From: an uncultured Planctomycetota bacterium | GTDB taxonomy: Bacteria; Planctomycetota; Planctomycetia; Gemmatales; Gemmataceae | Direction of reading: 5' to 3' | DNA: 64,000 nucleotides | Assembly: GCA_963849325.1 (NCBI GenBank) | Contig: CAWKHF010000012.1 | Location: 1,216,001-1,280,000 of the forward strand | In this document: one piece after another, positions 13,280-39,761 of the stretch | Layout of the letters: each line of letters opens with the position of its first letter | Position numbering within the stretch: position 1 is the first letter of the stretch | Position numbers and translations under genes: made by a program | The notes under the pieces: generated by a model | Seen by the model: only the letters and a program-made list of their open reading frames with translations | Told to the model about the DNA's origin: nothing | Database searches by the model: none

Positions 13280-14038
13280 ATGGCGCGAATCGAACTGGAG
13301 CACGTTCATCTGACCTTCCGGGTGCGGCAGGAGCGAGGAGTTCGCCTCAAGGACTTCATCCTCAAGCGTATGTTCCTGCCGTCGAAAAACCCGATCATGG
13401 AAGTGCGGGCGCTGCAAGACATCAACCTGCGCATCGAGAAGGGCGACCGCGTCGGCTTCATCGGCCACAACGGCGCCGGCAAGAGCACCATGCTCAAGCT
13501 GCTGGCCGGCATCTACACGCCAACCAGCGGCCGACGCAACGTCCAGGGCCGCATCTCGTCGCTGTTCGACATCGCCCTGGGCTTCGAGGGCGAGGCCAGC
13601 GGCTGGGAGAACATCGCCTACCGCAGTTTCCTGCAAGGCGAGACGCCGAGCAGCGTCCGCGCCAAGAAGCAGGCCATCGCCGACTTCAGCGAGCTGGGCG
13701 ATTTCCTCAACATGCCGGTGCGCTACTATTCGGCTGGTATGATGGTACGATTGGCCTTCTCGATCGCCACGGCCATCGATCCCGAGATCCTGCTGGTGGA
13801 CGAGGTGCTCAGCGTCGGCGATCTGGCGTTTCAGCACAAAGCGCGCGAGCGCATGCGCGAGATGATGGCCAAGGCGCACCTGATGGTCCTTGTCACGCAC
13901 GATCTGGAATCGCTGCATCAGATGTGCAACCGGGCCGTGTGGATGGATCACGGCCGCATGGTCATGACGGGACCGTGCAGTGAAGTGGTGGCCGCGTATC
14001 GCTCGTCGGTGCAGACGCAGCCGGCCACAGCCGCCTAG
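13280..14038 (+). CDS. wzt: Polysaccharide ABC exporter ATPase Wzt (no C-terminal carbohydrate-binding domain)
   Basis: GHNGAGKST, PVRYYSAGMMVRLAF, ILLVDEVLSVGD; 252 aa. Confidence 0.93.
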   Translation: MARIELEHVHLTFRVRQERGVRLKDFILKRMFLPSKNPIMEVRALQDINLRIEKGDRVGFIGHNGAGKSTMLKLLAGIYTPTSGRRNVQGRISSLFDIALGFEGEASGWENIAYRSFLQGETPSSVRAKKQAIADFSELGDFLNMPVRYYSAGMMVRLAFSIATAIDPEILLVDEVLSVGDLAFQHKARERMREMMAKAHLMVLVTHDLESLHQMCNRAVWMDHGRMVMTGPCSEVVAAYRSSVQTQPATAA

Positions 14039-14064
14039 CGGAAATCCGGATGTGAGGATTTCTC

Positions 14065-15728: not shown

Positions 15729-16887
<1,159 letters not shown>

Positions 16888-17426: not shown

Positions 17427-17499
17427 AAGTTCTGAGTTCTGAGTTCTGAGTTCTGAGTGCCGTCTTCACTCAGAACTCAGAACTCAGAACTCAGAACTT
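17427..17499. repeat. Perfect 33-bp inverted repeat built from tandem AGTTCTG heptamers
   Basis: AAGTTCTG(AGTTCTG)3AGTG, 7-nt loop, exact reverse complement. Confidence 0.95.
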
Positions 17500-17516
17500 T
17501 TACCTGAGTGGAGCGC

Positions 17517-18612
17517 ATGAGCCGAATTGCCATCGTCAGCCTGAGCATTGCCCCCGGCGACGCCGTGGGCAACGACGCCCTGGAGATGCACCGTATCCTG
17601 TCCGCGCAGGGCCACACGGTAGGGCTGTTCAACTCCCATTGGGTCAAGAAGACTTCGCAGACGCGGGACGTGGCTGAGCTGCCGGATTTCCTCGGCGATG
17701 ATCCTCGCTCGATCCTGCTCTATCACCACGCCGTCGGCTGGGCGGCGGGTATCGAGCTGCTGCGGCGGACGACGTGTCGGCGCGTCGTGAAATATCACAA
17801 CGTCACGCCGGGCCGATTCTTCGCCGGCTTCCCCGGCGACCAGATGCGCGTCTGCCAGCTGGGCCGCGACCAGCTGCGCGAGCTGGCGCGGGCGAAGTGC
17901 GATCTTTACCTGTCCGATTCTCCGTACAATCAGGGCGAATTGCTCGACGCCGGCGCCGATCCCGAACGCTGCGCCGTGGTGCCGCCGTTCCATCACATCG
18001 ACCGCCTCGATGCCTTGCAGCCGGACCCCGAGATCCTGCGCCGTCTCGGCGATGGACAGACGAACCTGCTGTTCGTGGGACGACGGGCGCCGAACAAGGG
18101 CCATCGCTTCCTCATCGATGCCTTCGCCGCCTACCATGAACACTACAACTCCAACAGTCGTCTTCTCCTCGTCGGCAAGGAAGACCGTCATCTCGTCAGT
18201 TACTCGAACCAGCTGCGCGAGCAGGCGTCGCGCCTCGGCGTGCTCGACCGCGTTCTGTTCATCGACAGTGCGACGGAGTCGGAGCTGCGAGGTTACTACG
18301 AGACGGCGTCGGCGTTGGTGGTGGCCAGCGAGCACGAAGGTTTCTGCGTGCCGGTGGTGGAGGCGATGGCGTTGGGCGTGCCGGTGGTGGCCTATGGCAC
18401 GACGCGCCGTGCCGCACACCGTCGGCGACGCCGGCCTGGTCTGGGACGAACCGGACCCCTTCTTGCTGGCTCAATCCGTCGATGCCGTCGTCCGCGATGC
18501 CGACTTGCGTCGCCGTCTGGCCGAACGCGGCTGGCGCCGCTATCAGCAACTCTTTTGCAACGATCGCATCGAACACGCCTTCCTCCACGCCTTGCGGCCG
18601 TTGGCGGCTTAG
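17517..18612 (+). CDS. Glycosyltransferase family 4 (one frameshift near 18403)
   Basis: GDAVGND, YHNVTP, LFVGRRAPNKG, SEHEGFCVPVVEAMALGVPV; has 1 extra base relative to its paralog at 18652. Confidence 0.9.
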
Positions 18613-19818: not shown

Positions 19819-19884
19819 CCGCTGACGCGCGAAGACTCACCTCGAAGCTTGTCCCTCTCTCCCACGGAAGGCGCGGGACCGGAC

Positions 19885-20687
19885 ATGAAAGTGATTATTC
19901 TCGCGGGCGGCATGGGCACCCGCCTGGCCGAAGAGACGCAGGTGAAGCCCAAGCCGATGGTCGAGATCGGCGGCAAGCCCATCCTGTGGCACATCCTGAA
20001 ACATTTCGCCCACCACGGCTTCACCGAGTTCGCTATCGCTCTCGGCTACAAGGGCGATGTCATCAAACGCTATTTCCTGGATTACACCCTCATCAGCGGC
20101 AACCTCACCGTCGATCTGGGTTCCGGCGAGATTACCCGCCAGCGTAACGTCGTGGAGAAATGGACAGTCCATCTGGTTGATACGGGACTGCACACGGTCA
20201 CGGGAGGGCGCGTCAAGCGGCTGGCGCCGCTGATCGGCGCGAGACGTTCCTGATGACCTACGGCGACGGCGTCGCCAACGTGGACCTGAAGCGCCTGCTG
20301 CAATTTCACCGCTCGCACGGCAAGCTGGCGACGGTGACGGCGGTGCGTCCGCCGGCGCGGTTCGGCGGTCTGTGCTTCGAGCAGGACCAGGTGGTGCAGT
20401 TCACCGAGAAGCCGCAGATCGGCGAGGGCTGGATCAATGGCGGCTATTTCGTGCTGGAACCGGAAGTATTCGACTACATCGCCGGCGACGACATTCATTT
20501 CGAGCAAGAGCCGCTGGAGACCCTGGCCGCGGACGGACAGCTGATGGCGTATCGGCATCCCGATTTCTGGCAGTGCATGGACACGATGCGCGACCACCGC
20601 TTGCTGGAGACACTGTGGAACTCCGGCAAGGCTCCCTGGTGCGTGTGGGCCGAGTCCGAGACGGAACTATCCCGCAAGGCCGCCTGA
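19885..20687 (+). CDS. rfbF: Glucose-1-phosphate cytidylyltransferase (frameshift near 20240)
   Basis: VIILAGGMGTRLAEET, KPMVEIGGKPILWHI, DTGLHTVTGGR, TYGDGV, WINGGYFV, FWQCMDT, GKAPW. Confidence 0.93.
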
Positions 20688-20697: not shown

Positions 20698-21702
20698 ATG
20701 CCGGAGCATGACACGGACTGGTCGGGACGGCGCATCCTGGTGACGGGGGCGAGCGGCTTCGTCGGCTCCTGGCTCGTCAAGACGCTGATACAACGGCGGG
20801 CCGATGTGGTCGTCCTGCTGCGCGACGCCGATCCGCAGAGCGAATTGCTCCGCGGCGGCATGCTCCGCCATACCACCGTCGTCAGCGGCGAGCTGGAGAA
20901 CTACGAGACGGTACGGCGGGCGATCAACGAGCACGAGGTGGACACGATCTTCCACCTGGCTGCCCAGGCCATCGTCGGCGCGGCCCTGCGCGATCCACTG
21001 CCGACTTTCGAGTCCAACATTCGCGGCACCTATCACGTGCTGGAGGCGGCGCGCGTCCATGCGGGGCTGGTCAAGGCCGTGGTCATCGCCTCCAGTGACA
21101 AGGCCTACGGCGACAGCGACGACCTGCCCTATCAGGAGACGCATCCGCTCGCCGGCCAGCACCCTTACGATGTGTCCAAAAGCTGTACCGACCTGCTGGC
21201 GAGTTCGTATTTCCACACCTACGGCTCGCCGATCGCCATCGCCCGCTGTGGCAACATCTACGGCGGCGGCGATCTCAACTGGACGCGCATCGTACCGGGG
21301 ACCATCCGTTCGCTTCTGCGGCGCGAGAGGCCGATCCTGCGCAGCGACGGCAACATGGTGCGCGATTACCTCTTCGTCGAGGACGCGGTGGACGCTTACC
21401 TGGCGCTGGCGGCCCGGATCGACAGGCCGGAGGTGACGGGACAAGCGTTTAACTTCAGCACCGAGTCCTACGTCACCGTCCGCGAGATCGTCCAGACGAT
21501 TCAGCAAGTGATGGATGCGCGCGACCTGGAGCCAATCATCCAAAATCGGGCCGGCGGCGAGATCCGAGCGCAATCGCTGTGTTCGGCGAAGGCGCGGGCG
21601 GTGCTGGGCTGGTCGGCGCCTCACGACCTGATGGCGGGACTGCGGAAGACGGTGGCGTGGTATCGAGCGTACCTGGCTTCGGCTCAGCCGCTTGCGGCTT
21701 AG
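20698..21702 (+). CDS. rfbG: CDP-glucose 4,6-dehydratase-like SDR
   Basis: VTGASGFVGSWL, FHLAAQAIV, SSDKAYG, PYDVSKS, RCGNIYGGGDLNWTRIVP; follows rfbF. Confidence 0.75.
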   Translation: MPEHDTDWSGRRILVTGASGFVGSWLVKTLIQRRADVVVLLRDADPQSELLRGGMLRHTTVVSGELENYETVRRAINEHEVDTIFHLAAQAIVGAALRDPLPTFESNIRGTYHVLEAARVHAGLVKAVVIASSDKAYGDSDDLPYQETHPLAGQHPYDVSKSCTDLLASSYFHTYGSPIAIARCGNIYGGGDLNWTRIVPGTIRSLLRRERPILRSDGNMVRDYLFVEDAVDAYLALAARIDRPEVTGQAFNFSTESYVTVREIVQTIQQVMDARDLEPIIQNRAGGEIRAQSLCSAKARAVLGWSAPHDLMAGLRKTVAWYRAYLASAQPLAA

Positions 21703-21797: not shown

Positions 21798-23032
21798 ATG
21801 AGTCGGTTGACTTCCTGCCGGATTTGTGGGGCCAGCGCATCGAGTCTGCAATCGGTGCTCGACCTGGGCGAAACGCCGCTCGCTAACCGCCTGCTGCGGG
21901 CCGAGCACCTCGGCGAGGACGAGCCGCGCTATCCGCTGGAGCTGGTCCTGTGTCCGCACTGCTCGCTCTTGCAAATCACCGAGACGGTGCCGCCCGAGGT
22001 CTTGTTTCGCCAATATCTCTACTGCTCCAGCTTCTCCGATACGATGCTCCACCACTCCGAGAAGTTAGCCGAGCGTCTCATCGCCGAGCGCGGCCTGGGT
22101 CCGTCGAACCTGGTGATGGAAGCCGCCAGCAATGACGGCTATCTGCTGCAATACTTCACGCGCGAAAACGTCCGTGTCTGCGGCATCGAGCCGGCTCGCA
22201 ACATCGCGCGGGCGGCGCGGCGCGGGGCATTCCCACCATCGACGAATTTTTCGGGACCGAGTTGGCCGGACGTCTCCGTGGCGACGGCGAACGGGCCGAC
22301 GTTTTCCTGGCCAACAACGTGCTGGCGCACGTCGCCGACACCAACGATTTCGTCCGCGCCGTGCAGCTTGTGCTGGCGCCGAAAGGCGTGGCCGTCATCG
22401 AGGCGCCCTACGCCAGGGACATGATCGACCATTGCGAGTTTGACACCATTTATCACGAGCACCTGTGTTACTTCTCGCTGACGGCGCTGGATCGCTTGTT
22501 TGGTCAGAACGGTCTGCGCATCTTTGCCGTCGAGCGTGTGCCGATCCACGGCGGCTCGCTGCGCCTGTTCATCGGCCATGCCGACGCGGTTGTGCAAGGC
22601 GCAACGGTGCGAGCGCTGCTGGACGAGGAGCGTTCCTGGGGCGTCAACGACGTGGCCGCCTACGCCGATTTTCGCCGCCGCGTGGAGGCGCTGAAGACTG
22701 AGTTGTGCGAGCGTCTGCACGCGCTGAAACGACAGGGGGCGCGACTGGCCGCTTACGGCGCCTCCGCCAAGGGCAGCACGCTGCTGAACTATTTCGGCAT
22801 CGGCCGGGACATGCTCGAGTTCGTCGTCGATCGCAGCACGGTCAAGCAGGGACATTACACGCCCGGCTCACATCTGCCCATTCACGCCCCGGAGAGACTG
22901 TTGGAAGAAATGCCCGACCAGGTATTGCTGCTGACGTGGAACTTCGCCGACGAGATCGTTCGCCAGCAGCAGGAATACCGCAGACGCGGCGGGTGCTTTC
23001 TCATCCCCATTCCCGAATTGCGCGTGGCCTGA
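21798..23032 (+). CDS. NDP-hexose 3-C-methyltransferase family (frameshift near 22215)
   Basis: Zn-binding CRIC...CPHC, DLGETPLAN, ASNDGYLL, ANNVLAHV, FDTIYHEHLCYFS, HGGSLR, YGASAKG, LTWNFADEI. Confidence 0.9.
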
Positions 23033-23584: not shown

Positions 23585-24498
23585 AACGAGTGTTGCTGAC
23601 CGGCGCCGGCGGGTTCGTCGGCCGCCATTGTCTGCCGGAATTGATGGCGCGCGGCTACGAAGTCCACGCCGCCTCCCGGCAACCGCCCGCCGACCACGAC
23701 GGCGACGTCACCTGGCACCGGATCGATCTGTTCGACGGCCGGCAGGTCGAAGACTTGATGGCGCGGCTGCGTCCTTCGCATTTGCTCCATCTTGCCTGGG
23801 ACACCCGGCCGCGCCTGTACTGGACCTCGGCCGACAATCTCCGCTGGGTGCAGGCCAGCCTCTCCCTCATCCAGTCGTTCATCCATCACGGCGGCCGGCG
23901 CATCGTCGGGGTAGGCACCTGCGCGGAATACGACTGGTCGCACGGTTACTGCTGCGAGCGCGTGACGCCCCTGGCCCCGGCCACCCTTTACGGCCGCTGC
24001 AAACATGCGTTGCGGCTGATGGCCGAAGCCTACGCCGTCCAGCAGAACGTCTCCTGGGCCTGGGGCCGACTGTTTTTCCTCTACGGCCCACACGAACAAC
24101 CGCAGCGTTTCGTGCCTTCGGTGATCCGCGCCTTGCTCCAGGGCGAGCCGGCCCTCTGCACCCACGGCCGGCAACTGCGCGATTTCCTCTTTGTCGCCGA
24201 TGCGGCCTCGGCCCTGGCGGCCCTGCTCGACAGCGACCTGCGCGGCCCCATCAACGTCGCCTCGGGACAGGCCATCGCCTTGAAGGATCTCGCTCGCACC
24301 GTCGCCAACCTGCTGGGACGGCCCGAATTGCTCCGACTGGGGAGTTTAACGCCGCCGGCCGGCGATCCGCCGGTATTGCTGGCGAACGTGTCCCGCTTGG
24401 CCGATGAATTATCCTGGTCGCCACGCATTTCCCTTTCCGAAGGGCTGGACCAGACGATCGCGTGGTGGCACAACGCCGGGAGGCTAAAGGCGGCATGA
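23581..24498 (+). CDS. NAD-dependent epimerase/4-ketoreductase
   Basis: LTGAGGFVG, LHLAW, GTCAEY, YGRCK, RLFFLYGP, RDFLFV; ATGA overlap with rfbC. Confidence 0.88.
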   Translation: MKRVLLTGAGGFVGRHCLPELMARGYEVHAASRQPPADHDGDVTWHRIDLFDGRQVEDLMARLRPSHLLHLAWDTRPRLYWTSADNLRWVQASLSLIQSFIHHGGRRIVGVGTCAEYDWSHGYCCERVTPLAPATLYGRCKHALRLMAEAYAVQQNVSWAWGRLFFLYGPHEQPQRFVPSVIRALLQGEPALCTHGRQLRDFLFVADAASALAALLDSDLRGPINVASGQAIALKDLARTVANLLGRPELLRLGSLTPPAGDPPVLLANVSRLADELSWSPRISLSEGLDQTIAWWHNAGRLKAA

Positions 24499-25691
24499 AG
24501 ACAAACGACCCCGTTTGCCCCGTTTGCACCTCGGCCGACGCCCGGCCATTCCTGTTGCGCCCGTCGGTCGTGGTCCATCAAAACTTGTTGGTGGACCAGC
24601 CCGAACGAGCGCGCGAGCTAAAACGCGGCGATCTCCGTTTGTACTGCTGTCCCGCCTGCGGCTTCGTGTTCAATGCCGCCTTCGACCCCAGTCGCATCGA
24701 CTACGGCGGCAGCTACGACAATTGTCAGACCTTTTCACCCTTATTCGCCGCATACACCGAGCAGCTGGCGGGTGAATTGCTGCGAGACAAGGGGGTCCGC
24801 AATTGCCGTATTATTGAGATCGGTTGTGGGGAAGGAGCTTTCCTGCGGCGTCTGGTCGAGGGGGAGGGGGCGAACAATCGCGGCTGGGGTTTTGATCCCA
24901 GTTACGCCGGCTCGGACGTGGCCGCTGGCGGTCGGCTCCGCTTCGCACGTCGCTACTACGACGAGCAGTGTACCGACATCGCGGCCGACGTCGTTGTGTG
25001 CCGTCACGTCATCGAACACGTACACGATCCCGTCGGCCTGCTGCGAACCGTGTACCGTGCCCTGGCCGGCTCGCCGTGCCCACGGCTCTTTTTCGAGACC
25101 CCGTGCGTCGATTGGATCCTCGCCAACCAGGTGATCTGGGATTTCTTCTACGAACACTGCTCCTACTTCACCGCCGGCTCGTTGCGGACGGCCTTCGAGC
25201 GCGCCGGCTTCTCGGTCGTCGAAGTCCGCCACGTTTTCGGCGGTCAGTACCTGTGGCTGGAGGCGGTCAAGGGAGACGGTCTGAACACGGCCACGCGCCG
25301 GCCGGGAGAAACGGCCCGGCACGCCGCCGCCTTCGGCGAGATCGAACGAGGTCGGGTCACCGCCTGGACCGAGCGCGTCGAAGGATTGGTGAAGCGCGGC
25401 AAGGTCGCCATCTGGGGCGCCGGCGCCAAGGGCGTCACTTTCGCCAACCTCGTGGACCCCGGACAGCGTCTTCTCGATTGTGTCGTGGACGTCAATCCGC
25501 GCAAGAGCGGACGATACTTGCCCGGAACGGGGCACCCCATTGTCGGCCCGTCGATGCTGGATCGCCGCGACGTCTCGACCGCCCTGGTCCTCAATCCGAA
25601 TTACCGGGCGGAAATCGCCGCGTTGATGGCCAAACAGAAGAGTGATGCGTGCGTCCTCGATCTGATGCAAATGCAAGGGGGTTTGTCATGA
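24495..25691 (+). CDS. Second C-methyltransferase-like class I SAM methyltransferase
   Basis: CPVC...CPAC, EIGCGEG, CRHVIEH, DFFYEHCSYF, WGAGAKGVTF. Confidence 0.85.
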   Translation: MKTNDPVCPVCTSADARPFLLRPSVVVHQNLLVDQPERARELKRGDLRLYCCPACGFVFNAAFDPSRIDYGGSYDNCQTFSPLFAAYTEQLAGELLRDKGVRNCRIIEIGCGEGAFLRRLVEGEGANNRGWGFDPSYAGSDVAAGGRLRFARRYYDEQCTDIAADVVVCRHVIEHVHDPVGLLRTVYRALAGSPCPRLFFETPCVDWILANQVIWDFFYEHCSYFTAGSLRTAFERAGFSVVEVRHVFGGQYLWLEAVKGDGLNTATRRPGETARHAAAFGEIERGRVTAWTERVEGLVKRGKVAIWGAGAKGVTFANLVDPGQRLLDCVVDVNPRKSGRYLPGTGHPIVGPSMLDRRDVSTALVLNPNYRAEIAALMAKQKSDACVLDLMQMQGGLS

Positions 25692-26473
25692 AAATGGTCC
25701 TGGATACGGACGCTCGGACGCTGACGCTCGAAGACGGCGAACGGCGACAGACCGCTCCGCTGTACGGCTGCGAGGCGTTCGCCTGGCTGTCGCGCGAATG
25801 GCTGCGTCTCGGCTGGGAGCTGAAGTACAGTTACCAGTTCTCCTGGCTGGGCCGGCCCATCATCCAGCTGCCGGAAGACCTGATGCGCGTCCAGCACGCC
25901 ATCCACCATCTCCGCCCCGACGTGATCGTGGAAACCGGCATCGCCCATGGCGGTTCGCTGATCTTTTACGCCAGCCTGTGCCAGCTCCTCGGCAAGGGGC
26001 GCGTGATCGGAGTGGACCTGACCATCCATCCCCACAACCGACAAGCCATCGAGGGCCACGAGCTGGCCCCGCGCATCACGCTGGTGGAGGGCGATGCCGT
26101 GCATCCGGCCGTGGTCGCCAAGGTCCGCGCCCTCATTCACCCCGGTGAGACGGTGCTGGTGCTGCTCGATTCCAATCACTGCCGCGAGCACGTCCGGAAG
26201 GAACTGGAAGCGTACAGCCCGATGGTGACGCCCGGTTCGTACATCGTGGCGACCGACGGCGTCATGAAGGACCTGGCGGACCTGCCGCGTGGGCAGGCCG
26301 ACTGGACCTGGAACAATCCCAACGCCGCCGCCGCGGAGTTCCTGCAGGGCCATCCCGACTTCGTCCACGAAGATCCGATCGGTCCTTTCGTGGAGACGCC
26401 GATCCGCGCGCCGATCACCTACTGGCCCGGCGGTTGGCTGCGTCGTGTGGTGCCGGCGGCTGCGGCGGCCTGA
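25688..26473 (+). CDS. CmcI-family (cephalosporin hydroxylase-like / sugar O-methyltransferase) protein
   Basis: YSYQFSWLGRPIIQLPED, IVETGIAHGGSL, VLLDSNH, GSYIVATDG, NNP. Confidence 0.88.
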   Translation: MKMVLDTDARTLTLEDGERRQTAPLYGCEAFAWLSREWLRLGWELKYSYQFSWLGRPIIQLPEDLMRVQHAIHHLRPDVIVETGIAHGGSLIFYASLCQLLGKGRVIGVDLTIHPHNRQAIEGHELAPRITLVEGDAVHPAVVAKVRALIHPGETVLVLLDSNHCREHVRKELEAYSPMVTPGSYIVATDGVMKDLADLPRGQADWTWNNPNAAAAEFLQGHPDFVHEDPIGPFVETPIRAPITYWPGGWLRRVVPAAAAA

Positions 26474-26608: not shown

Positions 26609-28030
26609 ATGTCCGCTCCCCGCTTCAGCATCGTCATCCCCACGCGGAACCGGGCCGCAACGCTGGCTTTCACGCTGCAAACCTGCCGGTCCCAGGCGTT
26701 CGAGGACTTTGAGGTTATCGTCAGCGATAACGACAGTCCGCCACAGACGCGCGCGGTCGTGGAAGCTTGCGCCGACAAGCGCGTCAAGTACGTGCGGACG
26801 CCGGCGCCTCTGGCAATGACCGATAGCTGGGAGTTCGCCTGCGAGCAGGCCAGCGGCGAGTTCGTCACCGTCATCGGCGACGACGACGGTTATCTCCTTC
26901 ACGCCCTGACGGAGATCGATCGCCTGTTGCGCCTGGTGGACGCGCGGGTGTTGCGCTGGGACTCGGTCCTCTACAACTGGCCGGACCTCGCCCGGCAGCA
27001 GTACGCCCAGCCCAATGGCCTGCTCATCCCGCTGCGAATGGAGAAGGCCCACCATGCCATTCGCGCGGTCGATGCCGCTGAGGTGGTCCCATTGGCCGCC
27101 AATTCGCAGCTCAATTATGCCGAATTGCCGATGATTTATTGTTCGGCGGTCCATCAAGACATTCTTCGGCAGCTCCGCCAGAAGACCGGCCGAGTCTTCA
27201 AGGGCCGGACCCCCGACATTTACAGTGCGTTCGCCATCGCCTGGATGGCGGGCACTTACCACACGGTCAATGCCCCCCTCAACATCGCCGGCCTTTCGGG
27301 GAAAAGCACCGGGGTCGCTCACCTGTTCGTCAAGGACCGCAATGCGGTGGACGAGGACTTTCGCACGCTCAACGATCGGGCGGGGCACTCCGTGCATCCC
27401 ATCGTTCCCGACCTGCCGCGGCTCCCCGCACTCGTCGCCGATGCCTTCCTGCATGCCCAAGACGCGCTCGGTTCGGCCGATCCCGCGTCCGTCCTCGATC
27501 GCAAACAACTGATCGCCAACTGTCTGCGCGAAACGGAAGCGGAAGGGGAATGGAAGCAGGTACTCGCGGTCTGCCGGCTCTCCCTGGCCGATGACGCCGA
27601 GCTGCTGACCTGGTTCGACTCCACCTACGGCGACCAGCCCTTTGACGCGCTCCCTCGGACGACGCGACGGCAGGTCGAGAAGCGTTACGGCGGCACCTAT
27701 CTCAACCTCGACGCCTCGGAATTCGGTGTCAGCGACGTTGCCAGCGCCGCCGTGCTGTGCGAGAAGCTGCTCGGTTACCAGCGCGACGGCGTGAACGCCA
27801 GCCTGCGGACGACGGCCGAAGCCGTGTCGCCGCTGTCGGAATTGCAAGAAAAAGAGGCGATGATTCAGCTTCTTGACCGGACGTGCCGGGAGCGGCTCGC
27901 CGTCATCGAACAGCTTACGGCTCAGGTGGAGGCACTGGAGTCCCAACGAGCCGTTCCGCCCCCAACGCCGACTCGGTTCCGCGATGTGCTGCGCCGCATC
28001 CTTCGTCGCGGGGCGCGGAAGGCGGCCTGA
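26609..28030 (+). CDS. Glycosyltransferase family 2 with C-terminal coiled coil
   Basis: SIVIPTRNR, IVSDN, IGDDDG; coiled coil and basic helix at the C-terminus. Confidence 0.88.
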   Translation: MSAPRFSIVIPTRNRAATLAFTLQTCRSQAFEDFEVIVSDNDSPPQTRAVVEACADKRVKYVRTPAPLAMTDSWEFACEQASGEFVTVIGDDDGYLLHALTEIDRLLRLVDARVLRWDSVLYNWPDLARQQYAQPNGLLIPLRMEKAHHAIRAVDAAEVVPLAANSQLNYAELPMIYCSAVHQDILRQLRQKTGRVFKGRTPDIYSAFAIAWMAGTYHTVNAPLNIAGLSGKSTGVAHLFVKDRNAVDEDFRTLNDRAGHSVHPIVPDLPRLPALVADAFLHAQDALGSADPASVLDRKQLIANCLRETEAEGEWKQVLAVCRLSLADDAELLTWFDSTYGDQPFDALPRTTRRQVEKRYGGTYLNLDASEFGVSDVASAAVLCEKLLGYQRDGVNASLRTTAEAVSPLSELQEKEAMIQLLDRTCRERLAVIEQLTAQVEALESQRAVPPPTPTRFRDVLRRILRRGARKAA

Positions 28031-28258: not shown

Positions 28259-30268
28259 ATGACGAACGCCTTGCCGCCTCGCCAGGATAACTCCTCGGTC
28301 CTCCAACCGCGCCGCGCCTCCGGTGCGCTGCGAATCGGGGTGAACCTCGTCGCGCTGAACAGCAACGGCGGCGGCATGCGCCAGTACGTCCTCCAGCTGT
28401 TGCCGTGGATGCTCCGCCAATCGGAACATCATCTCGTCCTCTTCTATCACTGGCGTAGCCAACCGACGATCGCTATTCTCTTGCGCCGCCTGCGACCGTC
28501 CGAACGCAACCGCGTTCGCTGCGTATTCATCGTCGATCAGGACGAAATCTTCGGCCACGCGGACGACTTCGACGTCTATTTCTGTCCGCTCAACTGCCTG
28601 GCGCCGGACCTGCTCGACCGGCCGACGCTGGCCATGCTCCCCGACATCCAAGACCACTTTTTCCCGCACTACTTCAGCGAGGAGCAGCGGTCGTTGCGCG
28701 ACTATTTCTACCCGCAGCGCTGCCGGGCCGTGACCACGTTGCTGACCATCTCGCAGTTTTCGCGGCAGACGATTTGCGACGCCTTCGAGCTGCCGCCGGA
28801 GAAGGTCCGCGCCATCCACCTCGCCGCCAACGACGAAGTCCGCGAGGCCCGGCCGGAGTGGCCCGACGCCCTGGGCGATCTGCCGGGGCGATTCCTCTTC
28901 TACCCGGCCAACCTGTATCCGCACAAGAACCACAAAGCCCTGCTCGACGCCGTGCGTCTGCTCAAGGAGCGCGGCCTCGACTGTGCTTGCCTGATGACGG
29001 GCCAGCCCTCCCAGCCGGGCATCGATATCGACGCGGAGATCCGCGCTCGCGGCTTGCAAGAGCAGGCCCGCTGGCTCGGCCACGTCAGCGCCGGCGCCTT
29101 GCGCCATCTCTACGAGAATGCCGTGGCCCTGTGTTTCCCCAGCGAGTTCGAGGGGTTCGGCATGCCGCTGGTCGAGGCGATGGAGTGCGGCTGTCCGGTC
29201 ATCGCCACGCCGGCGGCCTGCATCCCGGAGATCGTCGGCGACGCGGCGATGCTGATCGACGGCACGCCGGAGGCGCTGGCCGACGCCGTCGCCCGGCTGC
29301 TGCGCGACCGCGAAGCGCGGCGCGATCTGATCGCACGGGGGCGGGCTCGCGCTCGCCGTTTCCATCCGAGCCGTCTCGCTCAGGAAACGCTGGAAGCCAT
29401 CGAGGAAGCCGTGGTCCGCTTCTGGGAGCCGCCCTCCTCGTCCCGCGAGGCGCAGGCGATCACCTACGTCGTCCATCCCCGCGCGGGAGGCCGGGACCTG
29501 ATCGAGACGCTGAGCAGCCTGGCCTTCGAGGTGCGCGATCACGACGAGATCCTGGTCCTGGCGGAGCGCGACTCCCTGATGATGGACGCTCGAATCCTGT
29601 GCGAGAACTTGCGGATCGTCCGCTTCCTTCCACCGGACGCCTGGCTCGATGAAGTACACCATGACTACCTCTTTTATCTGCAAGAGGGCGGCCGGATCAG
29701 CGAAGGAGCGACGCAAGCGGCCCTGGCCGAGTTCGCCGAGGACTCCGACTGCCAGGCGGTGGTCGGTGAAGTGCTGGGACGCGACGACGGCGAGAAACTC
29801 GCACGAGTCGCCTATATGCCCCCACAGATGGATCGGCCTGGCCGGGTGGCGGCCACTGCCGGGAGAGACGCGGTCTCGTGGCGTGTCGAGGTTCGAGGCC
29901 AAATGCAGGAACCGCCTGCCGCGGCCGTCTTCTGGCGCACGGCTCATCTGCGGCGGCAGCGCCGCCTGCTGGCCGAAATGTCGTGGCCGATCCGGGCGCT
30001 GGAGATGGCCGAGGCGCAGGTGCGGGTGTGTTCGCGCACCTTCGCCAGCATCGCCGCTCCGTACACGATGCTCCGTCTCCGTGGACGGATACGCCCGATG
30101 ATGCGGCGTGTCGCCTTGGCGGTGCGTTGGTTGCCGCATCGGCTGCGTTCCCATCTGGGCCAATGGACCCGGAAACTGGGGTTGCGTCCGGAACGTCCCG
30201 TGCTGCCGACGACCGTTCGCCTGGCCGCCAGTTGGCGGACGGCCGACTCAACCGCGAAAGGGAGATGA
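28259..30268 (+). CDS. GT4 glycosyltransferase with a degenerate C-terminal GT-A-like extension
   Basis: TISQFSR, YPANLYPHKNH, FPSEFEGFGMPLVEAMECGCPV. Confidence 0.88.
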   Translation: MTNALPPRQDNSSVLQPRRASGALRIGVNLVALNSNGGGMRQYVLQLLPWMLRQSEHHLVLFYHWRSQPTIAILLRRLRPSERNRVRCVFIVDQDEIFGHADDFDVYFCPLNCLAPDLLDRPTLAMLPDIQDHFFPHYFSEEQRSLRDYFYPQRCRAVTTLLTISQFSRQTICDAFELPPEKVRAIHLAANDEVREARPEWPDALGDLPGRFLFYPANLYPHKNHKALLDAVRLLKERGLDCACLMTGQPSQPGIDIDAEIRARGLQEQARWLGHVSAGALRHLYENAVALCFPSEFEGFGMPLVEAMECGCPVIATPAACIPEIVGDAAMLIDGTPEALADAVARLLRDREARRDLIARGRARARRFHPSRLAQETLEAIEEAVVRFWEPPSSSREAQAITYVVHPRAGGRDLIETLSSLAFEVRDHDEILVLAERDSLMMDARILCENLRIVRFLPPDAWLDEVHHDYLFYLQEGGRISEGATQAALAEFAEDSDCQAVVGEVLGRDDGEKLARVAYMPPQMDRPGRVAATAGRDAVSWRVEVRGQMQEPPAAAVFWRTAHLRRQRRLLAEMSWPIRALEMAEAQVRVCSRTFASIAAPYTMLRLRGRIRPMMRRVALAVRWLPHRLRSHLGQWTRKLGLRPERPVLPTTVRLAASWRTADSTAKGR

Positions 30269-31192
30269 TGTCCTCGGCGGACCCGAAAGTCGCGGTCGTC
30301 GTTCCGGTGCATGGGCGGCTGCCCCTGACGATACGGTTCCTCGAATCGTTTCGGCAGGTCGCGTACCGCAACGCCGTGGTGGTCCTCATCGACGACCGCT
30401 CGCCGGACGACACGGCCGACCACCTGGCCCGCCATTTCCCCGAGGTGAAAGTCCTGCAAGGCGATGGCAAACTGTGGTGGGCGGGCGGCACTAACAAGGG
30501 CGTGCGCTACGCGCTGGCTCGCCGCTTCCCCTACGTCCTGACCATCAACAACGACGCGATCGTCCATCCCGACTTCCTGGGCCGACTGGTCGAGACGGCG
30601 GAGGCGCACCCCGGCAGCATCGTCGGCAGCCGCATCAATTTCCTCGATGATCCCGGCAAAGTCTGGGCGATCGGCGGCTACACCAACTGGGAGGTCCATT
30701 TCATCCTCAACCTGTTCGACAACGACGTTGCCGAGGAGGACGTGCTGGAGCGGCGAAGCCACCCGTGGCCGGCGGAGTTTCTGACCGGCTGCGGCACCCT
30801 CGTTCCCACCGGCTGTTATCGCAAGATCGGACTCTATGACGAGCGCATGTGTCCGCAATATCATGCCGACTCGGAATTCACGCTGCGGGCCGGCAGCAAC
30901 GGCTATCGCATCCTGGTCGATCTGCGCGGTGGTTTACAACGACGTGCCGCACACCTGCCGCTTGCGACACCTGCTGGTGCGGCGCTCGCCCTTCTTCTGG
31001 AAGCCGATGCTCGCCCTGCACCTGCGCTACTGCCCGACGCGGCACCGGCTCAAGTCGCTGTGCCGGCAGTACGGCGAGACCGTGGTGGATCAGTTGTATC
31101 CGGCGCTGCCCGGCGACGGCGATCCGCCGTTCATCCGACTGCGAAAGGTGATGCAGCGCCTCAAGCGCCGCCTCCTGCGGCGCACGGCGTAA
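30265..31192 (+). CDS. Glycosyltransferase family 2 (WbbL-like; frameshift near 30925)
   Basis: VVVPVHGR, IDDRSPDDT, LWWAGGTN, TINNDA, GCGTLV, YHADSEF. Confidence 0.85.
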
Positions 31193-31250
31193 ATGCTTTT
31201 ATTCCAAGAAACGACCTGTCCCATCGAAAGTGAGATTGGAGAAGAGAAAG

Positions 31251-32208
<958 letters not shown>

Positions 32209-34578: not shown

Positions 34579-36403
34579 AGCGCGTGAACAATACCTGGCG
34601 AGCGGAGAGTGTCAGCCCCCTGTTGCCTGCGAGAACAGGGGGCTGACGCCCCCCGCTCGCCGGGCTACCGCCTTTTGGGCCTGGGGCGCGATCGTCCTGG
34701 CCCTTGTGCTCCAATATGCTCTCTTCCGCCAGTACGCGCTCCGCGAGGTCGTCTGGTCCTACCCGGCCTCCCACGATCAGACGTTCTATTTGAGCATCAG
34801 CTACGACACCTACGAGCACATTCTCAACGACGGTCTGTTCGAGGGATTGAAGTACGGCTTCAGCCGGCGCGCTCCGGCCGGGATGGTCCTGCACGTGCAA
34901 GCGTCCCTGCTGTACCTGATTCTGGGTCCGGGCCGTCTGAGCGCCTTGACGGTGAATTTCCTGTACTTCGCGTTGTTGCAGGGAGTGCTGGCCTGGACGC
35001 TGCGTTGGCTGTCCGGGCGGTGGTCGGTGGCGCTGGTGGGGCTGGGATTGCTGTTGTGTAGCTTGACGCCGTTTTTCTGGGCCGGCAGCCTGATCGATTT
35101 CCGCATCGACTTCGCGGCCATGTGCCTGTTCGGCGTGCTCCTGTCTTTGACCGTCCGCTCCAGCCTGTTCGCCTCGCGCGGCTGGTCCGTCGTCGTCGGC
35201 GTCACGGCTGCCGGCCTCATCCTTGTGCGTTTCATCACGGTGGTGTACCTGACCGGAGTCATGGGCCTTTTCGTGGCCTTGCTCGTGCTCCGGTTGGGAT
35301 GGCCGTGGCGCGATCCGGTCTCGCGGCGGAAGGAATGGCGGCGGTTGGGCCACATCGGACTGGCGGTCGTGGTCGTGGCGGTGGTGGCGGGGCCGGTCCT
35401 GTGGTGGCGCGCGGACTTGCTGCGCTCCTATTACGTAATTGGCCACCTTACCGGAGAGGAAAAGTACATTCGCGTGCTCATGTACGGCTACGATCGGCTC
35501 TACTATCCGCGCTCTTTACTTCGAGACCACGCCGGCCCGACGTTCGTAGTTGTGACGGTGGTCTCCGTGCTGATCGCGGGCGCGCTCGCCGTGGTCCGGC
35601 GGTGGACCGCCCTCCCGGCCAGCGCGACGCCATCCCAACGACACCTACTCCCACCCGTCGGCCTGACGATCGCCTTCACCTCGTTGACGCTGCTGGTGCC
35701 AATGATCGTCCTCACCATCGACATGCACCGCTCTCCCGTGACCGGGGAAATCATGCTGGTCCCGTTGGTCTGGCTGGTGATGCTCGTCGTGGCCGCCCTC
35801 GCCGGCTCGTCGGATACGGGGGGCCGGCCACGGGTCGAATACAGCCTGGCGGCGCTGGTCGGCGTTGCTTTCGTGATGGCGGGGCTTACCCGCGTCGCAC
35901 AAGTCGGTCAGCACTGGAAAATGACCCGCGAACGTCCCAACATGGAGAAACTACTCGCTCTTCACGACCTGATCGGCCAGGCGATGCGCGATCGCGGCAT
36001 GCAGCACGCCTTCGCCCTCAGCACGTCCAACGCCGACTACTTGACGTTCGAGGCTACCGAGGCGCTGGTCTACGAGCGCCAAGGGTTCTACTGTTCGTTC
36101 GAGTCCTACCTGCGGCAGCTCTCCGCCGTCTCCGAAGACCAGGCCCTCGCCGCCCTGGGGCGCAGCCAAGTCGTTGTTCTGGCTCCCCCCGAGCGCGTGC
36201 AGACGCCGTTCGACCAGTCGATGGTGCAGCTGTTGCCTCGACTGCGCGATTACTGCGAGACCCATTTGGAACATTTGCAGACCTTCCAAGTCTTCGGCAG
36301 GGACATCGCCGTCTACATCCGAAACAACTCCGCCGGCCGACCGGGACCGAAGCCCGGACCCGGTCGGCCGGCGGCCGGGACGTCCGTGTCCCGCGCCGAC
36401 TGA
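34568..36403 (+). CDS. Paralogous polytopic membrane protein (probable GT-C); start uncertain
   Basis: LQYALFRQYALREVVWSYPASHDQT and DFRIDFAAMCLFGVLL match the upstream gene. Confidence 0.6.
   Translation: MYLRAREQYLASGECQPPVACENRGLTPPARRATAFWAWGAIVLALVLQYALFRQYALREVVWSYPASHDQTFYLSISYDTYEHILNDGLFEGLKYGFSRRAPAGMVLHVQASLLYLILGPGRLSALTVNFLYFALLQGVLAWTLRWLSGRWSVALVGLGLLLCSLTPFFWAGSLIDFRIDFAAMCLFGVLLSLTVRSSLFASRGWSVVVGVTAAGLILVRFITVVYLTGVMGLFVALLVLRLGWPWRDPVSRRKEWRRLGHIGLAVVVVAVVAGPVLWWRADLLRSYYVIGHLTGEEKYIRVLMYGYDRLYYPRSLLRDHAGPTFVVVTVVSVLIAGALAVVRRWTALPASATPSQRHLLPPVGLTIAFTSLTLLVPMIVLTIDMHRSPVTGEIMLVPLVWLVMLVVAALAGSSDTGGRPRVEYSLAALVGVAFVMAGLTRVAQVGQHWKMTRERPNMEKLLALHDLIGQAMRDRGMQHAFALSTSNADYLTFEATEALVYERQGFYCSFESYLRQLSAVSEDQALAALGRSQVVVLAPPERVQTPFDQSMVQLLPRLRDYCETHLEHLQTFQVFGRDIAVYIRNNSAGRPGPKPGPGRPAAGTSVSRAD
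34597..34661. repeat. REP-like palindrome, GGCGAGCGG..TCAGCCCCCTGTT family (copy 2)
   Basis: Near-identical to 4336-4399. Confidence 0.9.
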
Positions 36404-36446: not shown

Positions 36447-39400
36447 ATGCCCGCGCCAGACCGCCGAGACGACGCCCTTTCCCCGGCCGACTCCCCCGTC
36501 TTGCCGCGAATCAGTGTCGTGGTGCCGTCGTACAACCAGGGTCATTTTCTGCCCGAGTGTCTGGAGAGCATCTTCCGGCAGAATTATCCCGACCTGGAAG
36601 TGGTGGTGATGGATGGTGGCTCCCGCGATGACAGCGTGGACGTGATCCGCTCGTATGCGCCGCGCCTGAAGCACTGGCAGAGCGAACGCGACGACGGCCA
36701 ATCGGCGGCCATCAACGGCGGCGTCAAGCACTGCACCGGCGAACTGGTGGCCTGGCTCAACTCCGACGACTTCTATTGGGGCGACGCCCTGTGGACGGCC
36801 GGCCGCGCCTGGGCCGCCTACCCTCGCCGCGGCCTGTACATCGGCAACGGCCTGCGCTATGACCAGCGCACGCGACAATACACTCCGTTCCTACCTCGAC
36901 ACGTCGCCCTGGATCGCGCCGCCCTCCGCGACGGGCCGGATTACATTTTGCAGCCCTCGACCTTTTTCGGACGACAAGCATGGCAGGAGGTTGGCGGACT
37001 CGATCCGGATCTCCGTTTTTGCATGGACTGGGACCTCTTTCTCCGCATCGGCCAGCGCTATCCCGCCGTGCTCATCAACGAGTTCCTGGGCGTCAGCCGC
37101 GAATACGAGGAGACCAAAACGCGCAGCGGCAAGACGACGCGGGCCATCGAAATCATTCGGATGGTTCAGCGCCATACGCAGGTCGAACTCACGTTCGGCG
37201 CCCTGTCCTACCTGCTGGAGACGCTGCTGGGCGGCGCTGCCGGAACAACTACCCGGCGTCTGCGCGGACACTTGATGCATAGCTTGTACGCGACCACGGG
37301 GTCGTTCTATCACCGCTTCGGCGATGGCCACTGGTCGGCCTGTTACGGCGATGGCCAGGACGACACGTATCTGCCCATCGCCGGCCCCGGCCAACTCCAT
37401 CCGCCGCGCCCGGCCTCCGCGCCGCCATTGCCGTCCTTCAGTATCGTCATTCCGTCCGGCGACGATGGCGTCGCCCTCGAACAGACGCTGGCGAGCGTCT
37501 TGAACCAGGATTACCCGCGTCTGGAAGTGCTGGTCGTCGAACGAGGGTCCGCGGACGGCCTGCCGGATCTGCGCGACCGATACGCGGATCGCCTTACCTG
37601 GCTCCGGTGCCCCGCCGAGGGAAGGGACGTCCAGGCCATCAACCAGGGTTTGGCCGCTGCTGGCGGCGACATCCTGGCCTGGCTGCACCCCGGCGACCTG
37701 CTGGCCGTCGGCGCCTTGCGCGCGGCGGGGGAGGCGTTCGCCTCCGACGGCAAGGTGGGATTGCTTTACGGCAATGCCGTCTTTCTCGATCCCCACGGCC
37801 GGCCCGCGCTGGCCGATCTACACTCCTGCCGCACCGCCTTCTGGATCGGGCGATTGGAAGCGAACGGCCGGGCGCCGGTTTACGACACGGAAGAGTATCA
37901 CGTCCCTCAGCCGACCCTTTGCTTCCGTCGCGGCCTCCTCGAAAAGTACGGTGGACTGGACGAATCGTATTCGCACATCTTCGCCTATGAATGGGTCAAG
38001 CGTCTGGCGGAGCGAACGCGCGTTCGCAAGCTGGAACGTACGCAAGCTTTCATCCGCCTCGGGACCAAGGAAGCCCCTGGTGAGTGGGACGCGATTCTGG
38101 CCGAGCTGTACCGTTTCAGCCGGCCGCGTTGGCCGGGACTCTTTTCCCGTGAGTTCTTCGCGGTCCTGACGCGCTACGTAGGCGGCTACATGCACCGGAA
38201 GTTCAATGGGCGGCCGCGCGATCTGTCTTCCTGGGCCGCCTGCGCAATGGTGACGCTGTCCACCTTGACGCGGCTAGGCAATCCCGAGCGTTGGTGGCGC
38301 GGCCGATTCTGGACGCCGCCCTGGGGCGCGCCGCCGCTGCATCTACCGCTGCCGTCGGTTCAAATCCGACCCTCGCTGCCCCTGGTGCGCAGGGAGGAGT
38401 TACCGCTCCGCGAGGGCACGAACTTTCGGGCTGCTGTGTGCATGTCGCGGCTGCCCCTCTATCCCGGTCGATCCGGCAGTGAGGCCCGTGCCTATCAGAT
38501 CGTGCGCCATCTGCTGCGCTTCACCACGTTGACGTTTTTCACCCAGCACGGCGCGCCGTCCGAACCGCCTGCCGGCGTGAGCGTCCCGGACGTGGACGTC
38601 CTGCACACGCCCGAGACCCTCTGGAAACAGCGACCCGACCTCGTCCGGCCCGCCCTGCTCAAGAAACGGTTGCATGGCCGCATCGCCTCCGGTTTGCGCC
38701 GCCTGAAAATCCCGGTCCCTGGACCGCGCAATCCCCTCGCCGTCACCAAGCAATTCCACATCGTCCGCGCCCACTGCACCCTGGCCGTCCAGGCCGCTCT
38801 CGACCGCGAGTCGTCCCGACCCGATTTCCTCTTTGTCGCCGATCAGACCAACCCCCTGGCCCTGACGCTCAACACGCGCGAGCGGCCGGCGCGACTGGTC
38901 CTCATCTCGCACAACGTCGAAGCGCAGCGCGTCCGCCGTGAGGCGAAGAGTCAGCGCGGCTTCCTTCATCTGGGCATGCGCTGGGAGGCGGCGCGAGCGC
39001 GGCGGTACGAGAGGAAGAACCTCTCTCGCTATGACGGCCTGATCGTCGCCGGCGAGGAGGACCGCCGCCGTTACGTCGCCGACTACGGCGTCCCCGACGA
39101 ACGCATCCTCGTTGTCGGCCGAGGCGTGGACCTCGACTACTGGAGCGCCTTGCCGCGCCAGCCGGAGCCTGGCGTCGTCGTCTTCGTGGGCGACCTGGGC
39201 GTGGCGGACAATCGACTGGCCGTCCGCCGCCTGCTGCGCGAGATCCTGCCGCGCGTCCGCCGGCGCCTTCCCGAGACACGCTGCTGGGTCGTCAATCCGG
39301 GTTCTCCCGCTGTGCTGGGCATCGGCGAGGACACCCGCACACAAATCCTCCACCGCGTCGAGGACGCGCGGCCCTACCTGGCACGGGCGACCGTCGCCTG

Positions 39401-39761
39401 CCTGCCGCTCCTTTCCGCCGTGGATGGGACGGTCCTGGAGACGATGGCGGCTGGGACTCCCGTGGTATGTACGCCCGAGGGAGTCGATGGTCTCTCTCTC
39501 CAGGCCGGCGAGCATTTTCTGTGTGGCCGACATCGGCATGAGCTGGCCGCTGCCGTCGAACGCTTGCTGACCGATGTCGCTTTCGCCGAAAAAATGGCGA
39601 CCCGAGCGCGTCAGCGGGTCGCGCGCGTTCACTCCGGGGAGGCTCACCTTGCCGGCCTGCGCGCCTGGCTCGAACGGATCGCCGACATGCCGCGCCGCCG
39701 TGGGGCGAAGCCCGGTCGCACGGAGACAGACGACAACTTGGCCGCGCCGAAGGCGGCGTGA
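36447..39761 (+). CDS. Three-domain glycosyltransferase GT2-GT2-GT4 (~1100 aa)
   Basis: SVVVPSYNQ/DGGSRD/WLNSDD; second domain SIVIPS/ERGSAD/WLHPGD; C-terminal GT-B VLETMAAGTPVV. Confidence 0.88.
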   Translation: MPAPDRRDDALSPADSPVLPRISVVVPSYNQGHFLPECLESIFRQNYPDLEVVVMDGGSRDDSVDVIRSYAPRLKHWQSERDDGQSAAINGGVKHCTGELVAWLNSDDFYWGDALWTAGRAWAAYPRRGLYIGNGLRYDQRTRQYTPFLPRHVALDRAALRDGPDYILQPSTFFGRQAWQEVGGLDPDLRFCMDWDLFLRIGQRYPAVLINEFLGVSREYEETKTRSGKTTRAIEIIRMVQRHTQVELTFGALSYLLETLLGGAAGTTTRRLRGHLMHSLYATTGSFYHRFGDGHWSACYGDGQDDTYLPIAGPGQLHPPRPASAPPLPSFSIVIPSGDDGVALEQTLASVLNQDYPRLEVLVVERGSADGLPDLRDRYADRLTWLRCPAEGRDVQAINQGLAAAGGDILAWLHPGDLLAVGALRAAGEAFASDGKVGLLYGNAVFLDPHGRPALADLHSCRTAFWIGRLEANGRAPVYDTEEYHVPQPTLCFRRGLLEKYGGLDESYSHIFAYEWVKRLAERTRVRKLERTQAFIRLGTKEAPGEWDAILAELYRFSRPRWPGLFSREFFAVLTRYVGGYMHRKFNGRPRDLSSWAACAMVTLSTLTRLGNPERWWRGRFWTPPWGAPPLHLPLPSVQIRPSLPLVRREELPLREGTNFRAAVCMSRLPLYPGRSGSEARAYQIVRHLLRFTTLTFFTQHGAPSEPPAGVSVPDVDVLHTPETLWKQRPDLVRPALLKKRLHGRIASGLRRLKIPVPGPRNPLAVTKQFHIVRAHCTLAVQAALDRESSRPDFLFVADQTNPLALTLNTRERPARLVLISHNVEAQRVRREAKSQRGFLHLGMRWEAARARRYERKNLSRYDGLIVAGEEDRRRYVADYGVPDERILVVGRGVDLDYWSALPRQPEPGVVVFVGDLGVADNRLAVRRLLREILPRVRRRLPETRCWVVNPGSPAVLGIGEDTRTQILHRVEDARPYLARATVACLPLLSAVDGTVLETMAAGTPVVCTPEGVDGLSLQAGEHFLCGRHRHELAAAVERLLTDVAFAEKMATRARQRVARVHSGEAHLAGLRAWLERIADMPRRRGAKPGRTETDDNLAAPKAA

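Follow-up and report, generated by a model that had tools for sequence, protein, structure and literature searches.

Ala-Ala C-termini on unrelated enzymes of a planctomycete glycan cluster: a candidate genome-encoded ssrA-like tag

Described C-terminal alanine signals and the present locus

C-terminal Ala-Ala signals are known chiefly from the ssrA tag, which is added by transfer-messenger RNA (tmRNA), and from a few regulators, and ClpX is the best-known reader of such ends. Here we describe a 64,000-nucleotide stretch of planctomycete DNA, termed the window, in which 10 of the 22 genes of a glycan cluster (13280-40687) encode proteins that end in Ala-Ala (AA) immediately before the stop codon, as does an MqnD-like menaquinone enzyme encoded outside the cluster. 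We put at roughly 45% the probability that these ends form an ssrA-like C-terminal tag written into the genes of cytoplasmic biosynthetic enzymes in Gemmataceae, with ClpX or some other AAA+ protease as its most likely reader.

The ssrA tag and native ClpX signals, such as that of Caulobacter CtrA, present a free C-terminal Ala-Ala on an appended tail, as do the proteins of the window, and Val-Ala (VA) is reported to be tolerated in the same position (PMC10862746). The CtrA end, ...VNAA, appears among the ClpX signals listed in PMC8138137. The likeness is one of sequence, and three differences stand beside it. The tmRNA tag is added by tmRNA, whereas the window tail consists of in-frame codons of the gene itself, standing before TGA or TAG; a native ClpX signal is carried by a regulator, whereas in the window a single locus repeats the end on about a dozen biosynthetic enzymes; and Leu, which E. 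coli ClpX prefers at position -3, is rare there in the present tails, whose usual residues are R, K, Q, H or A. A second precedent is LpxC, like the window proteins a cytoplasmic enzyme (in that case of envelope glycolipid synthesis) with a C-terminal tail, LAFKAPSAVLA, that is described as being read by FtsH and as setting the stability of the enzyme (PMC8138137). In LpxC one enzyme alone carries the element, which is longer, non-polar and finishes in LA, whereas the window shows a two-residue end, non-polar in itself (AA or VA), across unrelated enzymes whose tails carry R and K. The Ala-tails made by RqcH in Bacillus subtilis, where C-terminal alanines are reported to act as a ClpXP signal (PMC8138137), resemble the AAAAA end of the window CmcI-like protein, but RqcH tails are untemplated additions to stalled chains, whereas the window alanines are ordinary GCN codons preceding a stop.

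The locus itself compares with Wzm/Wzt polysaccharide clusters. It shares with them probable Wzm fragments, a Wzt-like ATPase, the genes that lead from GDP-mannose to GDP-fucose (ManA, Gmd and Fcl), an O-methyltransferase, many glycosyltransferases and a CDP-sugar branch (RfbF, RfbG, a C-methyltransferase, an epimerase and a reductase). The window, with a guanine-cytosine (GC) content of ~65%, is on the evidence of its protein families from a Gemmataceae-like planctomycete: the hallmark families PSCyt1, PSD1 and DUF1501 are encoded at 40787-44792 and PSCyt2 at 62815-63912, and the few named relatives of window proteins (80-88% identity) carry the labels Gemmataceae or Gemmatales. Against this background the tails are the lineage-specific addition. 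A scan of genome contigs with the CmcI-like protein returned eight CmcI-containing loci of other phyla (52-59% identity, 56-67% GC), used as a negative control only, in which AA precedes the stop in 1 of 79 open reading frames (ORFs).

Ala-Ala ends in excess of chance

Genes were called with a codon model trained on the window, their 3' ends were checked by third-position GC, and the codons preceding each stop were read; domains were assigned with Pfam and NCBIfam profiles, with NCBIfam scores compared with curated cut-offs. Among the 22 gene models between 13280 and 40687, the 12 that do not end in AA comprise one with VA (the sugar C-methyltransferase, LRVA, ending at 23032), one with TA (the glycosyltransferase GT2b, RRTA, 31192), one with AS (a protein of 162 amino acids, RKAS, 17421) and nine with unrelated ends. 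A first-pass annotation made from the sequence had listed ten AA termini together with these three near misses and the PQAA end of the MqnD-like protein (50312), all of which were read again here; its count of ten stands, and its total of 23 proteins becomes 22, five of them split by frameshifts. The same annotation had argued that the ends are not a DNA repeat, and the sequence bears this out. The Ala codon pairs vary (GCC GCC, GCG GCT, GCG GCA, GCG GCC and GCG GCG), the sequences 3' of the stops have nothing in common, and the distance to the next gene ranges from an overlap to more than 200 bases. A cause at the level of DNA was rejected on these grounds, and since the codons differ and no 3' sequence is shared, the AA end is a feature of the protein.

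The AA ends are also beyond chance. Alanine makes up 10.5% of residues in the cluster and 13.6% at positions -12 to -3, from which 0.24-0.41 AA ends would be predicted in 22 genes, under one as originally estimated, against the ten observed (binomial P = 2.6e-12 with the tail composition). Six-frame ORFs of at least 100 codons give AA in 18 of 354, and subtraction of the 11 real genes leaves 7 of 343 (~2%). Outside the cluster, AA terminates 1 of 18 reliable genes (Fisher p = 0.011), a set from which calls at ~6.8-13.2 kb and 50.3-56.1 kb were dropped because they scored low or had visible frameshifts; for the raw calls the figure is 1 of 34.

Proteins bearing the tail contain no hydrophobic segments and are predicted to be cytoplasmic, and, as the first-pass annotation had noted, the polytopic proteins lack it, namely the two encoded at 32323-34578 and 34568-36403, with 11 hydrophobic segments each, and the fragmented Wzm. 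The proposal that the tail is pathway-wide does not survive the census, however. Seven of the nine cluster proteins with unrelated ends are predicted to be soluble (ManA, the cupin, GT4b, the RmlC-like epimerase, one methyltransferase, GT4c and GT2c), and a few relatives of Gmd lack the tail altogether. Nor is the tail confined to the glycan pathway, given the MqnD-like enzyme encoded outside the cluster, whose relatives keep AA or VA in 98 of 120 cases.

The ends terminate appended extensions

The tails are appended extensions, which run 6-27 residues past the catalytic domain or family profile. In Wzt, Gmd, RfbF, the reductase, CmcI, Fcl and the triple glycosyltransferase, curated profiles end 7-27 residues ahead of the stop. 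The clearest example is the CmcI-like protein, for which all 11 closest homologues (63-100% identity, query included) carry an extension of 6-9 residues after a conserved GWLRRV and all end in AA, although the extensions themselves read VPAAAAA, TPESVAA, AAAVAAA, PQTTAAAA, TQATVAA, PGATAGAA and others. More distant CmcI homologues of ~254 amino acids, including those of other phyla, stop at WLRR, and among the 120 best homologues overall AA is found in 12. Likewise, the 4 of 120 Gmd relatives from which the tail is absent stop right after ...ALRPR.

Ten cluster proteins and the MqnD-like enzyme carry the free C-terminal Ala-Ala of an ssrA-like ClpX signal of the C-motif 1 type. Such a signal also calls for an exposed tail of at least about five unstructured residues; the window tails are hypervariable and reach 7-27 residues beyond the profiles, while the predicted local distance difference test score (pLDDT) falls below 50 only at the last three positions. 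The AlphaFold2 model of the CmcI-like protein (mean pLDDT 89.9) places a short helix at residues 256-260. In that of Gmd the final helix stops at residue 322, and pLDDT is below 50 for residues 327-329, in a model that is itself poor (mean pLDDT 71.2, from a shallow alignment). Beyond low confidence at the last three residues, these models are weak evidence for disorder of the tails.

Conservation of the last two residues among relatives

Relatives were drawn from a protein collection clustered at 90% identity, so that the rows compared are not near-duplicates. Among 120 relatives of Gmd (80-100% identity, query included), 106 end in AA, nine in VA and one in TA, and the four mentioned above have no tail; among 120 relatives of the MqnD-like protein (72-100% identity), 75 end in AA, 23 in VA, two in TA and 20 otherwise. 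Conservation is sharply restricted to the terminus. Across 102 distinct Gmd tails, entropy is 0.30 bits at -1 and 0.73 bits at -2, compared with 2.1-3.65 bits at -3 to -12, and across 115 distinct MqnD-like tails it is 1.14 and 1.53 bits at the last two positions, compared with 2.9-3.5 bits upstream. Tail length is variable as well, with 11-19 residues following the last motif in tailed Gmd proteins and 6-28 in MqnD. The residue at -3 in relatives is mostly R, Q, H, K or A. Where the end is VA, K or R occupies -3 in 6 of 7 Gmd tails and 20 of 23 MqnD tails, a pattern matched by the LRVA end of the window C-methyltransferase.

The glycosyltransferase GT2a was compared more broadly, with 150 representatives of clusters at 50% identity. 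AA is the commonest terminal dipeptide among them (13 representatives) and is present in four of the five representatives at 50% identity or above. Independent database proteins with 63-93% identity to those of the window show the same ends. Comparison with orthologues, which the first-pass annotation had proposed as a check, therefore finds the last two residues kept in Gmd, the MqnD-like protein and the closest CmcI-like relatives. Taken at the level of sequence, the pattern shows selection acting on the last two residues only, with the remaining tail apparently free to drift in sequence and length.

A candidate tag for an AAA+ protease

The same end is found on ten unrelated folds, among them an ABC ATPase, short-chain dehydrogenases/reductases (SDRs), a nucleotidyltransferase, a methyltransferase and glycosyltransferases of families GT2 and GT4, which argues for one common reader acting in trans. 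The presence of the tag on a menaquinone enzyme further indicates that it belongs to the lineage and not to the glycan pathway, so that the tail is, as far as the comparison of proteins reaches, a lineage device on a subset of cytoplasmic enzymes that happens to be very dense in the glycan cluster. Many cytoplasmic enzymes of the cluster bear a low-complexity extension of 6-27 residues past the catalytic domain, in which the sole constrained feature is a free end, [A/V]-Ala-COOH, usually after R, K, Q, H, L or A. In the mechanism that we favor, this free end would be the terminal determinant of the ssrA tag copied into the gene and would serve as a recognition site for an AAA+ unfoldase-protease, with ClpXP the likeliest and ClpAP and membrane-bound FtsH the other candidates. 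The tagged enzymes would then share one route of post-translational turnover, either constitutive or conditional, the latter for example acting only on unassembled or idle enzyme. The protease nature of the reader, its identity and the constitutive or conditional mode of degradation are points that we infer.

Findings in E. coli fit a ClpX reader. In a screen of random C-terminal 5-mers, all tags selected are reported to have been ssrA-like and dependent on ClpXP, with Ala-Ala at the end of 91% of the top 100, and FKLVA tags to have been degraded as YALAA tags were (PMC10862746). The predominance of AA with occasional VA in relatives of the window proteins is variation of a kind that E. coli ClpXP tolerates. 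Across 1,582 genomes, hydrophobic last residues are described as generally disfavored (PMC7246954), and the density of AA in the cluster stands out against that bias.

Several points weigh against the proposed protease tag, beginning with the same E. coli screen. According to the sections of PMC10862746 that present it, AA was necessary and not sufficient, and position -3 favored hydrophobic residues, Leu among them, over Pro, His, Gly and short polar residues. The ten window AA ends have T, R, L, K, L, K, A, K, A and K at this position (Leu in 2 of 10), which departs from the preference, and HAA ends account for 13 of the 115 distinct MqnD tails despite the disfavor of His; the preference is an E. 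coli rule that may not hold for planctomycete ClpX. The earlier likening of the ends to an ssrA/ClpX element is supported by the AA/VA variation and not by the residue at -3. The helix at residues 256-260 of the CmcI-like model suggests that its tail may not be fully disordered. The window contains no tmRNA gene, and no Clp or FtsH gene was found among its annotated or scanned ORFs. A strong degron that acted constitutively on housekeeping enzymes, Gmd among them, would carry a high cost, and with nine tailless proteins in the cluster any co-regulation would be partial. The degron reading would also be weakened if AA or VA ends proved very common across the Gemmataceae proteome. The link that had been drawn between the tails and a switch from swimming to sessile stages is speculation.

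What speaks for a shared, trans-acting reader speaks equally for one that is not a protease. The [A/V]A-COOH end could be a docking peptide for a partner, for instance a membrane scaffold or a PDZ- or TPR-like binder of C-terminal peptides, that would gather the soluble nucleotide-sugar enzymes, glycosyltransferases and Wzt ATPase, and separately the menaquinone enzymes, at the membrane for polyprenyl-linked steps. Glycan assembly through Wzm/Wzt and menaquinone prenylation are both membrane-associated, polyprenyl-linked chemistry, so that both tailed pathways finish in the kind of reaction that such a partner would serve, and the basic residue common at -3 or -4 is not the E. coli ClpX optimum. 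We nevertheless regard this alternative as rather unlikely. The cluster offers no candidate reader, its sole unassigned soluble protein (16933-17421) having neither a family match nor a lead from an Atlas search, and we know of no cytoplasmic AA-binding scaffold of this sort in bacteria, although no search aimed at one was made.

FtsH as the reader is a serious alternative to ClpX. Proteins carrying the ssrA tag are reported to be routed to ClpAP, Lon or FtsH as well (PMC8138137), and the tails could be degrons read by membrane-bound FtsH and not by ClpXP, as for LpxC in lipid A synthesis, with turnover that would respond to the status of membrane-based envelope synthesis. The window enzymes act at or near the membrane, and the C-terminal tail of LpxC sets a precedent (PMC8138137). 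However, the portions of PMC10862746 devoted to the E. coli random-tag screen describe no strong ClpXP-independent C-terminal tags, and the window tails are rich in basic residues, not uniformly non-polar; we judge it improbable that FtsH replaces ClpXP in this way.

The identity of the C-terminal residue is reported to affect bacterial expression and termination (PMC7246954), and the 11 AA genes, including that of the MqnD-like enzyme, show a skew in stop codons, with TGA in 8 of 11 and TAA in none. Ala-Ala before the stop might therefore reflect a constraint on translation termination or mRNA, favoring release or blocking read-through. Such an effect should extend to all genes, yet AA is found in only 1 of 18 neighbors, and it would leave unexplained both the whole appended extension and the substitution of V for A only at -2, with K or R at -3. 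The general bias described for 1,582 genomes in PMC7246954 also runs in the opposite direction, against hydrophobic last residues, and we consider this explanation very improbable.

Chance, GC-driven composition or frameshift-prone assembly artefacts, to which the many single-base frame breaks in the assembly and the commonness of Ala at 65% GC might point, are scarcely credible as the source of the ends in the face of the binomial test with tail composition, the rates of AA in non-gene ORFs and GC-matched loci of other phyla, and the third-position GC that backs the frames, and this reading is contradicted by the orthologue data, in which independent proteins carry the same ends.

Wider use of the end pattern

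The favored reading, an encoded protease tag, would have consequences beyond this locus. It is possible, though doubtful on present comparisons of sequence, that Gemmataceae, perhaps Planctomycetes, hard-code [R/K/Q/H/L]-[A/V]-A-COOH on a large set of cytoplasmic biosynthetic enzymes, including those of glycan and menaquinone synthesis and probably more. If so, the set would constitute a "C-terminal regulon," in which one reader clears or repositions many pathways at once, an arrangement useful to budding cells that grow too slowly to dilute proteins out, and the reader would be either a ClpX of altered specificity or a recognition system still to be described. What can be said of the locus is that the same end is found on about a dozen unrelated enzymes and is kept across a bacterial family while its surroundings drift. 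If the tails are degradation tags, they would be an unusually clear case of post-translational control of an entire biosynthetic pathway and would suggest a general strategy of proteome reset in slow-growing planctomycetes. The end pattern also supplies a simple sequence rule for finding further members of the set.

A search of the literature on degrons in Planctomycetes and Gemmata and on di-alanine signals of Caulobacter ClpXP found no description of AA tails in Planctomycetes. Signals of this kind are already known, but within the literature searched it is new to see one encoded and conserved on about a dozen biosynthetic enzymes of a single locus as well as on an enzyme that serves a second pathway.

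A stretch of the Singulisphaera acidiphila plasmid pSINAC01 was also read, in which AA ends 2 of 28 coding sequences, a sample too small and too distant to serve as a baseline. At 7292-9003 of this plasmid, ParA ends in RRVA and ParB in GQAA, the same types of end as in the window, which may hint at a wider planctomycete habit, perhaps in Isosphaeraceae. A tblastn search of plasmid records with DUF1501 and kinase queries returned no Gemmataceae plasmid, and the Singulisphaera plasmid was the sole record from a planctomycete.

The cluster and its tail-bearing proteins

The ABC-transporter-type polysaccharide cluster spans 12290-40687. It opens with Wzm fragments, Wzt, ManA, a cupin/epimerase-like protein, Gmd and the 162-residue protein and continues with two GT4 glycosyltransferases, RfbF, RfbG, the sugar C-methyltransferase, the RmlC-like epimerase, the SDR reductase, a methyltransferase and the CmcI-family O-methyltransferase. 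The remaining genes encode a GT2, a 669-residue GT4-containing protein, a second GT2, Fcl, the two proteins with 11 hydrophobic segments, a GT2-GT2-GT4 fusion and a final GT2. Profile scores exceed the cut-offs for Gmd (454.9 versus 415 bits), the RmlC-like epimerase (180.3 versus 155.75) and ManA (133.9 versus 116.2) and fall below them for Wzt (248.3 versus 400) and for a fragment of Wzm (60.8 versus 380), which is broken across frames.

Single-base frame changes split five cluster genes, encoding GT4a, RfbF, the C-methyltransferase, GT2b and Fcl. Three of the ten AA ends belong to 3' parts of split genes, each in a frame supported by composition. Third-position GC backs the coding frame at every AA end except that of GT2a, where it is ambiguous and where homologues that align to within 5 residues of the end support the frame. 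Further broken genes are found beyond these five, namely the Wzm fragments at 12290-13197 and a class-III aminotransferase and an ABC/FtsX pair (50335-52115, 52982-56127). The split genes are either indel errors of the assembly or real pseudogenes.

The genes described next all lie on the + strand. The Wzt-like ABC export ATPase (13280..14038) ends PATAA before TAG, ~10 residues past its profile, and matches NCBIfam galactan_ABC_ATP over residues 37-242 of 252, below cut-off. Gmd, the GDP-mannose 4,6-dehydratase (15898..16887; TIGR01472), ends AARAA before TGA. GT4a (17508..18612) has a one-base frame change near 18400, with Pfam Glycos_transf_1 in the upstream frame and a C-terminal part (18409-18612) that ends RPLAA before TAG. 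RfbF, the glucose-1-phosphate cytidylyltransferase (19849..20687), is split at ~20250 and ends SRKAA before TGA; residues 1-132 of its 144-residue C-terminal part match TIGR02623 positions 124-255 of 255, and the last 12 residues lie past the profile. RfbG, a CDP-glucose 4,6-dehydratase-like SDR (20698..21702), ends QPLAA before TAG and has a Pfam match as well as a match to TIGR02622 over residues 8-327 of 334, below cut-off. The sugar C-methyltransferase (21798..23032) is split near 22220, carries Methyltransf_13, Methyltransf_23 and Methyltransf_14 in two frames and ends ELRVA.

The SDR sugar reductase/epimerase (23590..24498; Pfam Epimerase) ends RLKAA before TGA, and its NCBIfam matches stop at residue 295 of 302. 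In the CmcI-family O-methyltransferase (25688..26473; PF04989), the 7-residue extension VPAAAAA follows the conserved motif and precedes TGA. GT2a, a glycosyltransferase of 473 amino acids (26609..28030; PF00535), ends ARKAA before TGA. GT2b (30232..31192), a near miss, undergoes a frame change near 30850-30900, where third-position GC shifts, and its true end, RRTA, precedes TAA. Fcl, the GDP-L-fucose synthase (31230..32208), is split before 31400 and ends RPAAA before TGA, 7 residues past the profile; residues 3-224 of its 231-residue C-terminal part match NF047922 positions 86-306 of 308. The triple glycosyltransferase GT2-GT2-GT4 (36447..39761) has a Pfam match and ends APKAA before TGA, 27 residues beyond the end of its TIGR03087 match at residue 1077 of 1104. 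Outside the cluster, the MqnD-like menaquinone enzyme (49440..50312; PF02621) carries its variable tail after LDIIEG and ends PQAA before TGA.

Two further products of the cluster have no assigned family. The soluble 162-residue protein (16933-17421), encoded directly after Gmd and heptad-like in its C-terminal half, has no Pfam or NCBIfam match, and its RKAS end is one residue off the KAA ends of four neighbors. Its gene is followed at 17428-17497 by a long perfect hairpin of tandem heptamers, four copies of GTTCTGA, a short loop and four copies of TCAGAAC, which looks like a terminator. The adjacent membrane proteins of 751 and 611 amino acids at 32323-36403, equally without a Pfam or NCBIfam match, are candidates for a polymerase, a ligase or a lipid-linked glycosyltransferase.

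Other features of the window

The 9-mer CACGGAWAA occurs 12 times, against 0.47 occurrences expected, and always between genes, at sites that include 3291-3299, 6458-6475, 40689-40743 and 61429-61514. Two tandem copies often oppose two inverted copies, forming hairpins of repeat units at the ends of genes. On the minus strand at 6500-12200, the coding signal is weak and fragmented, with a fragment of an FHA domain as the sole Pfam match and an AT skew of -0.14 at 8-12 kb; this region may be a large gene broken by frame changes. At 3-5590, a MinD/CpaE-like ATPase, a T2SSE ATPase and a T2SSF-type membrane protein make up a Tad- or type-IV-pilus-like set, which is followed by a Ser/Thr kinase, with an FHA fragment on the opposite strand.

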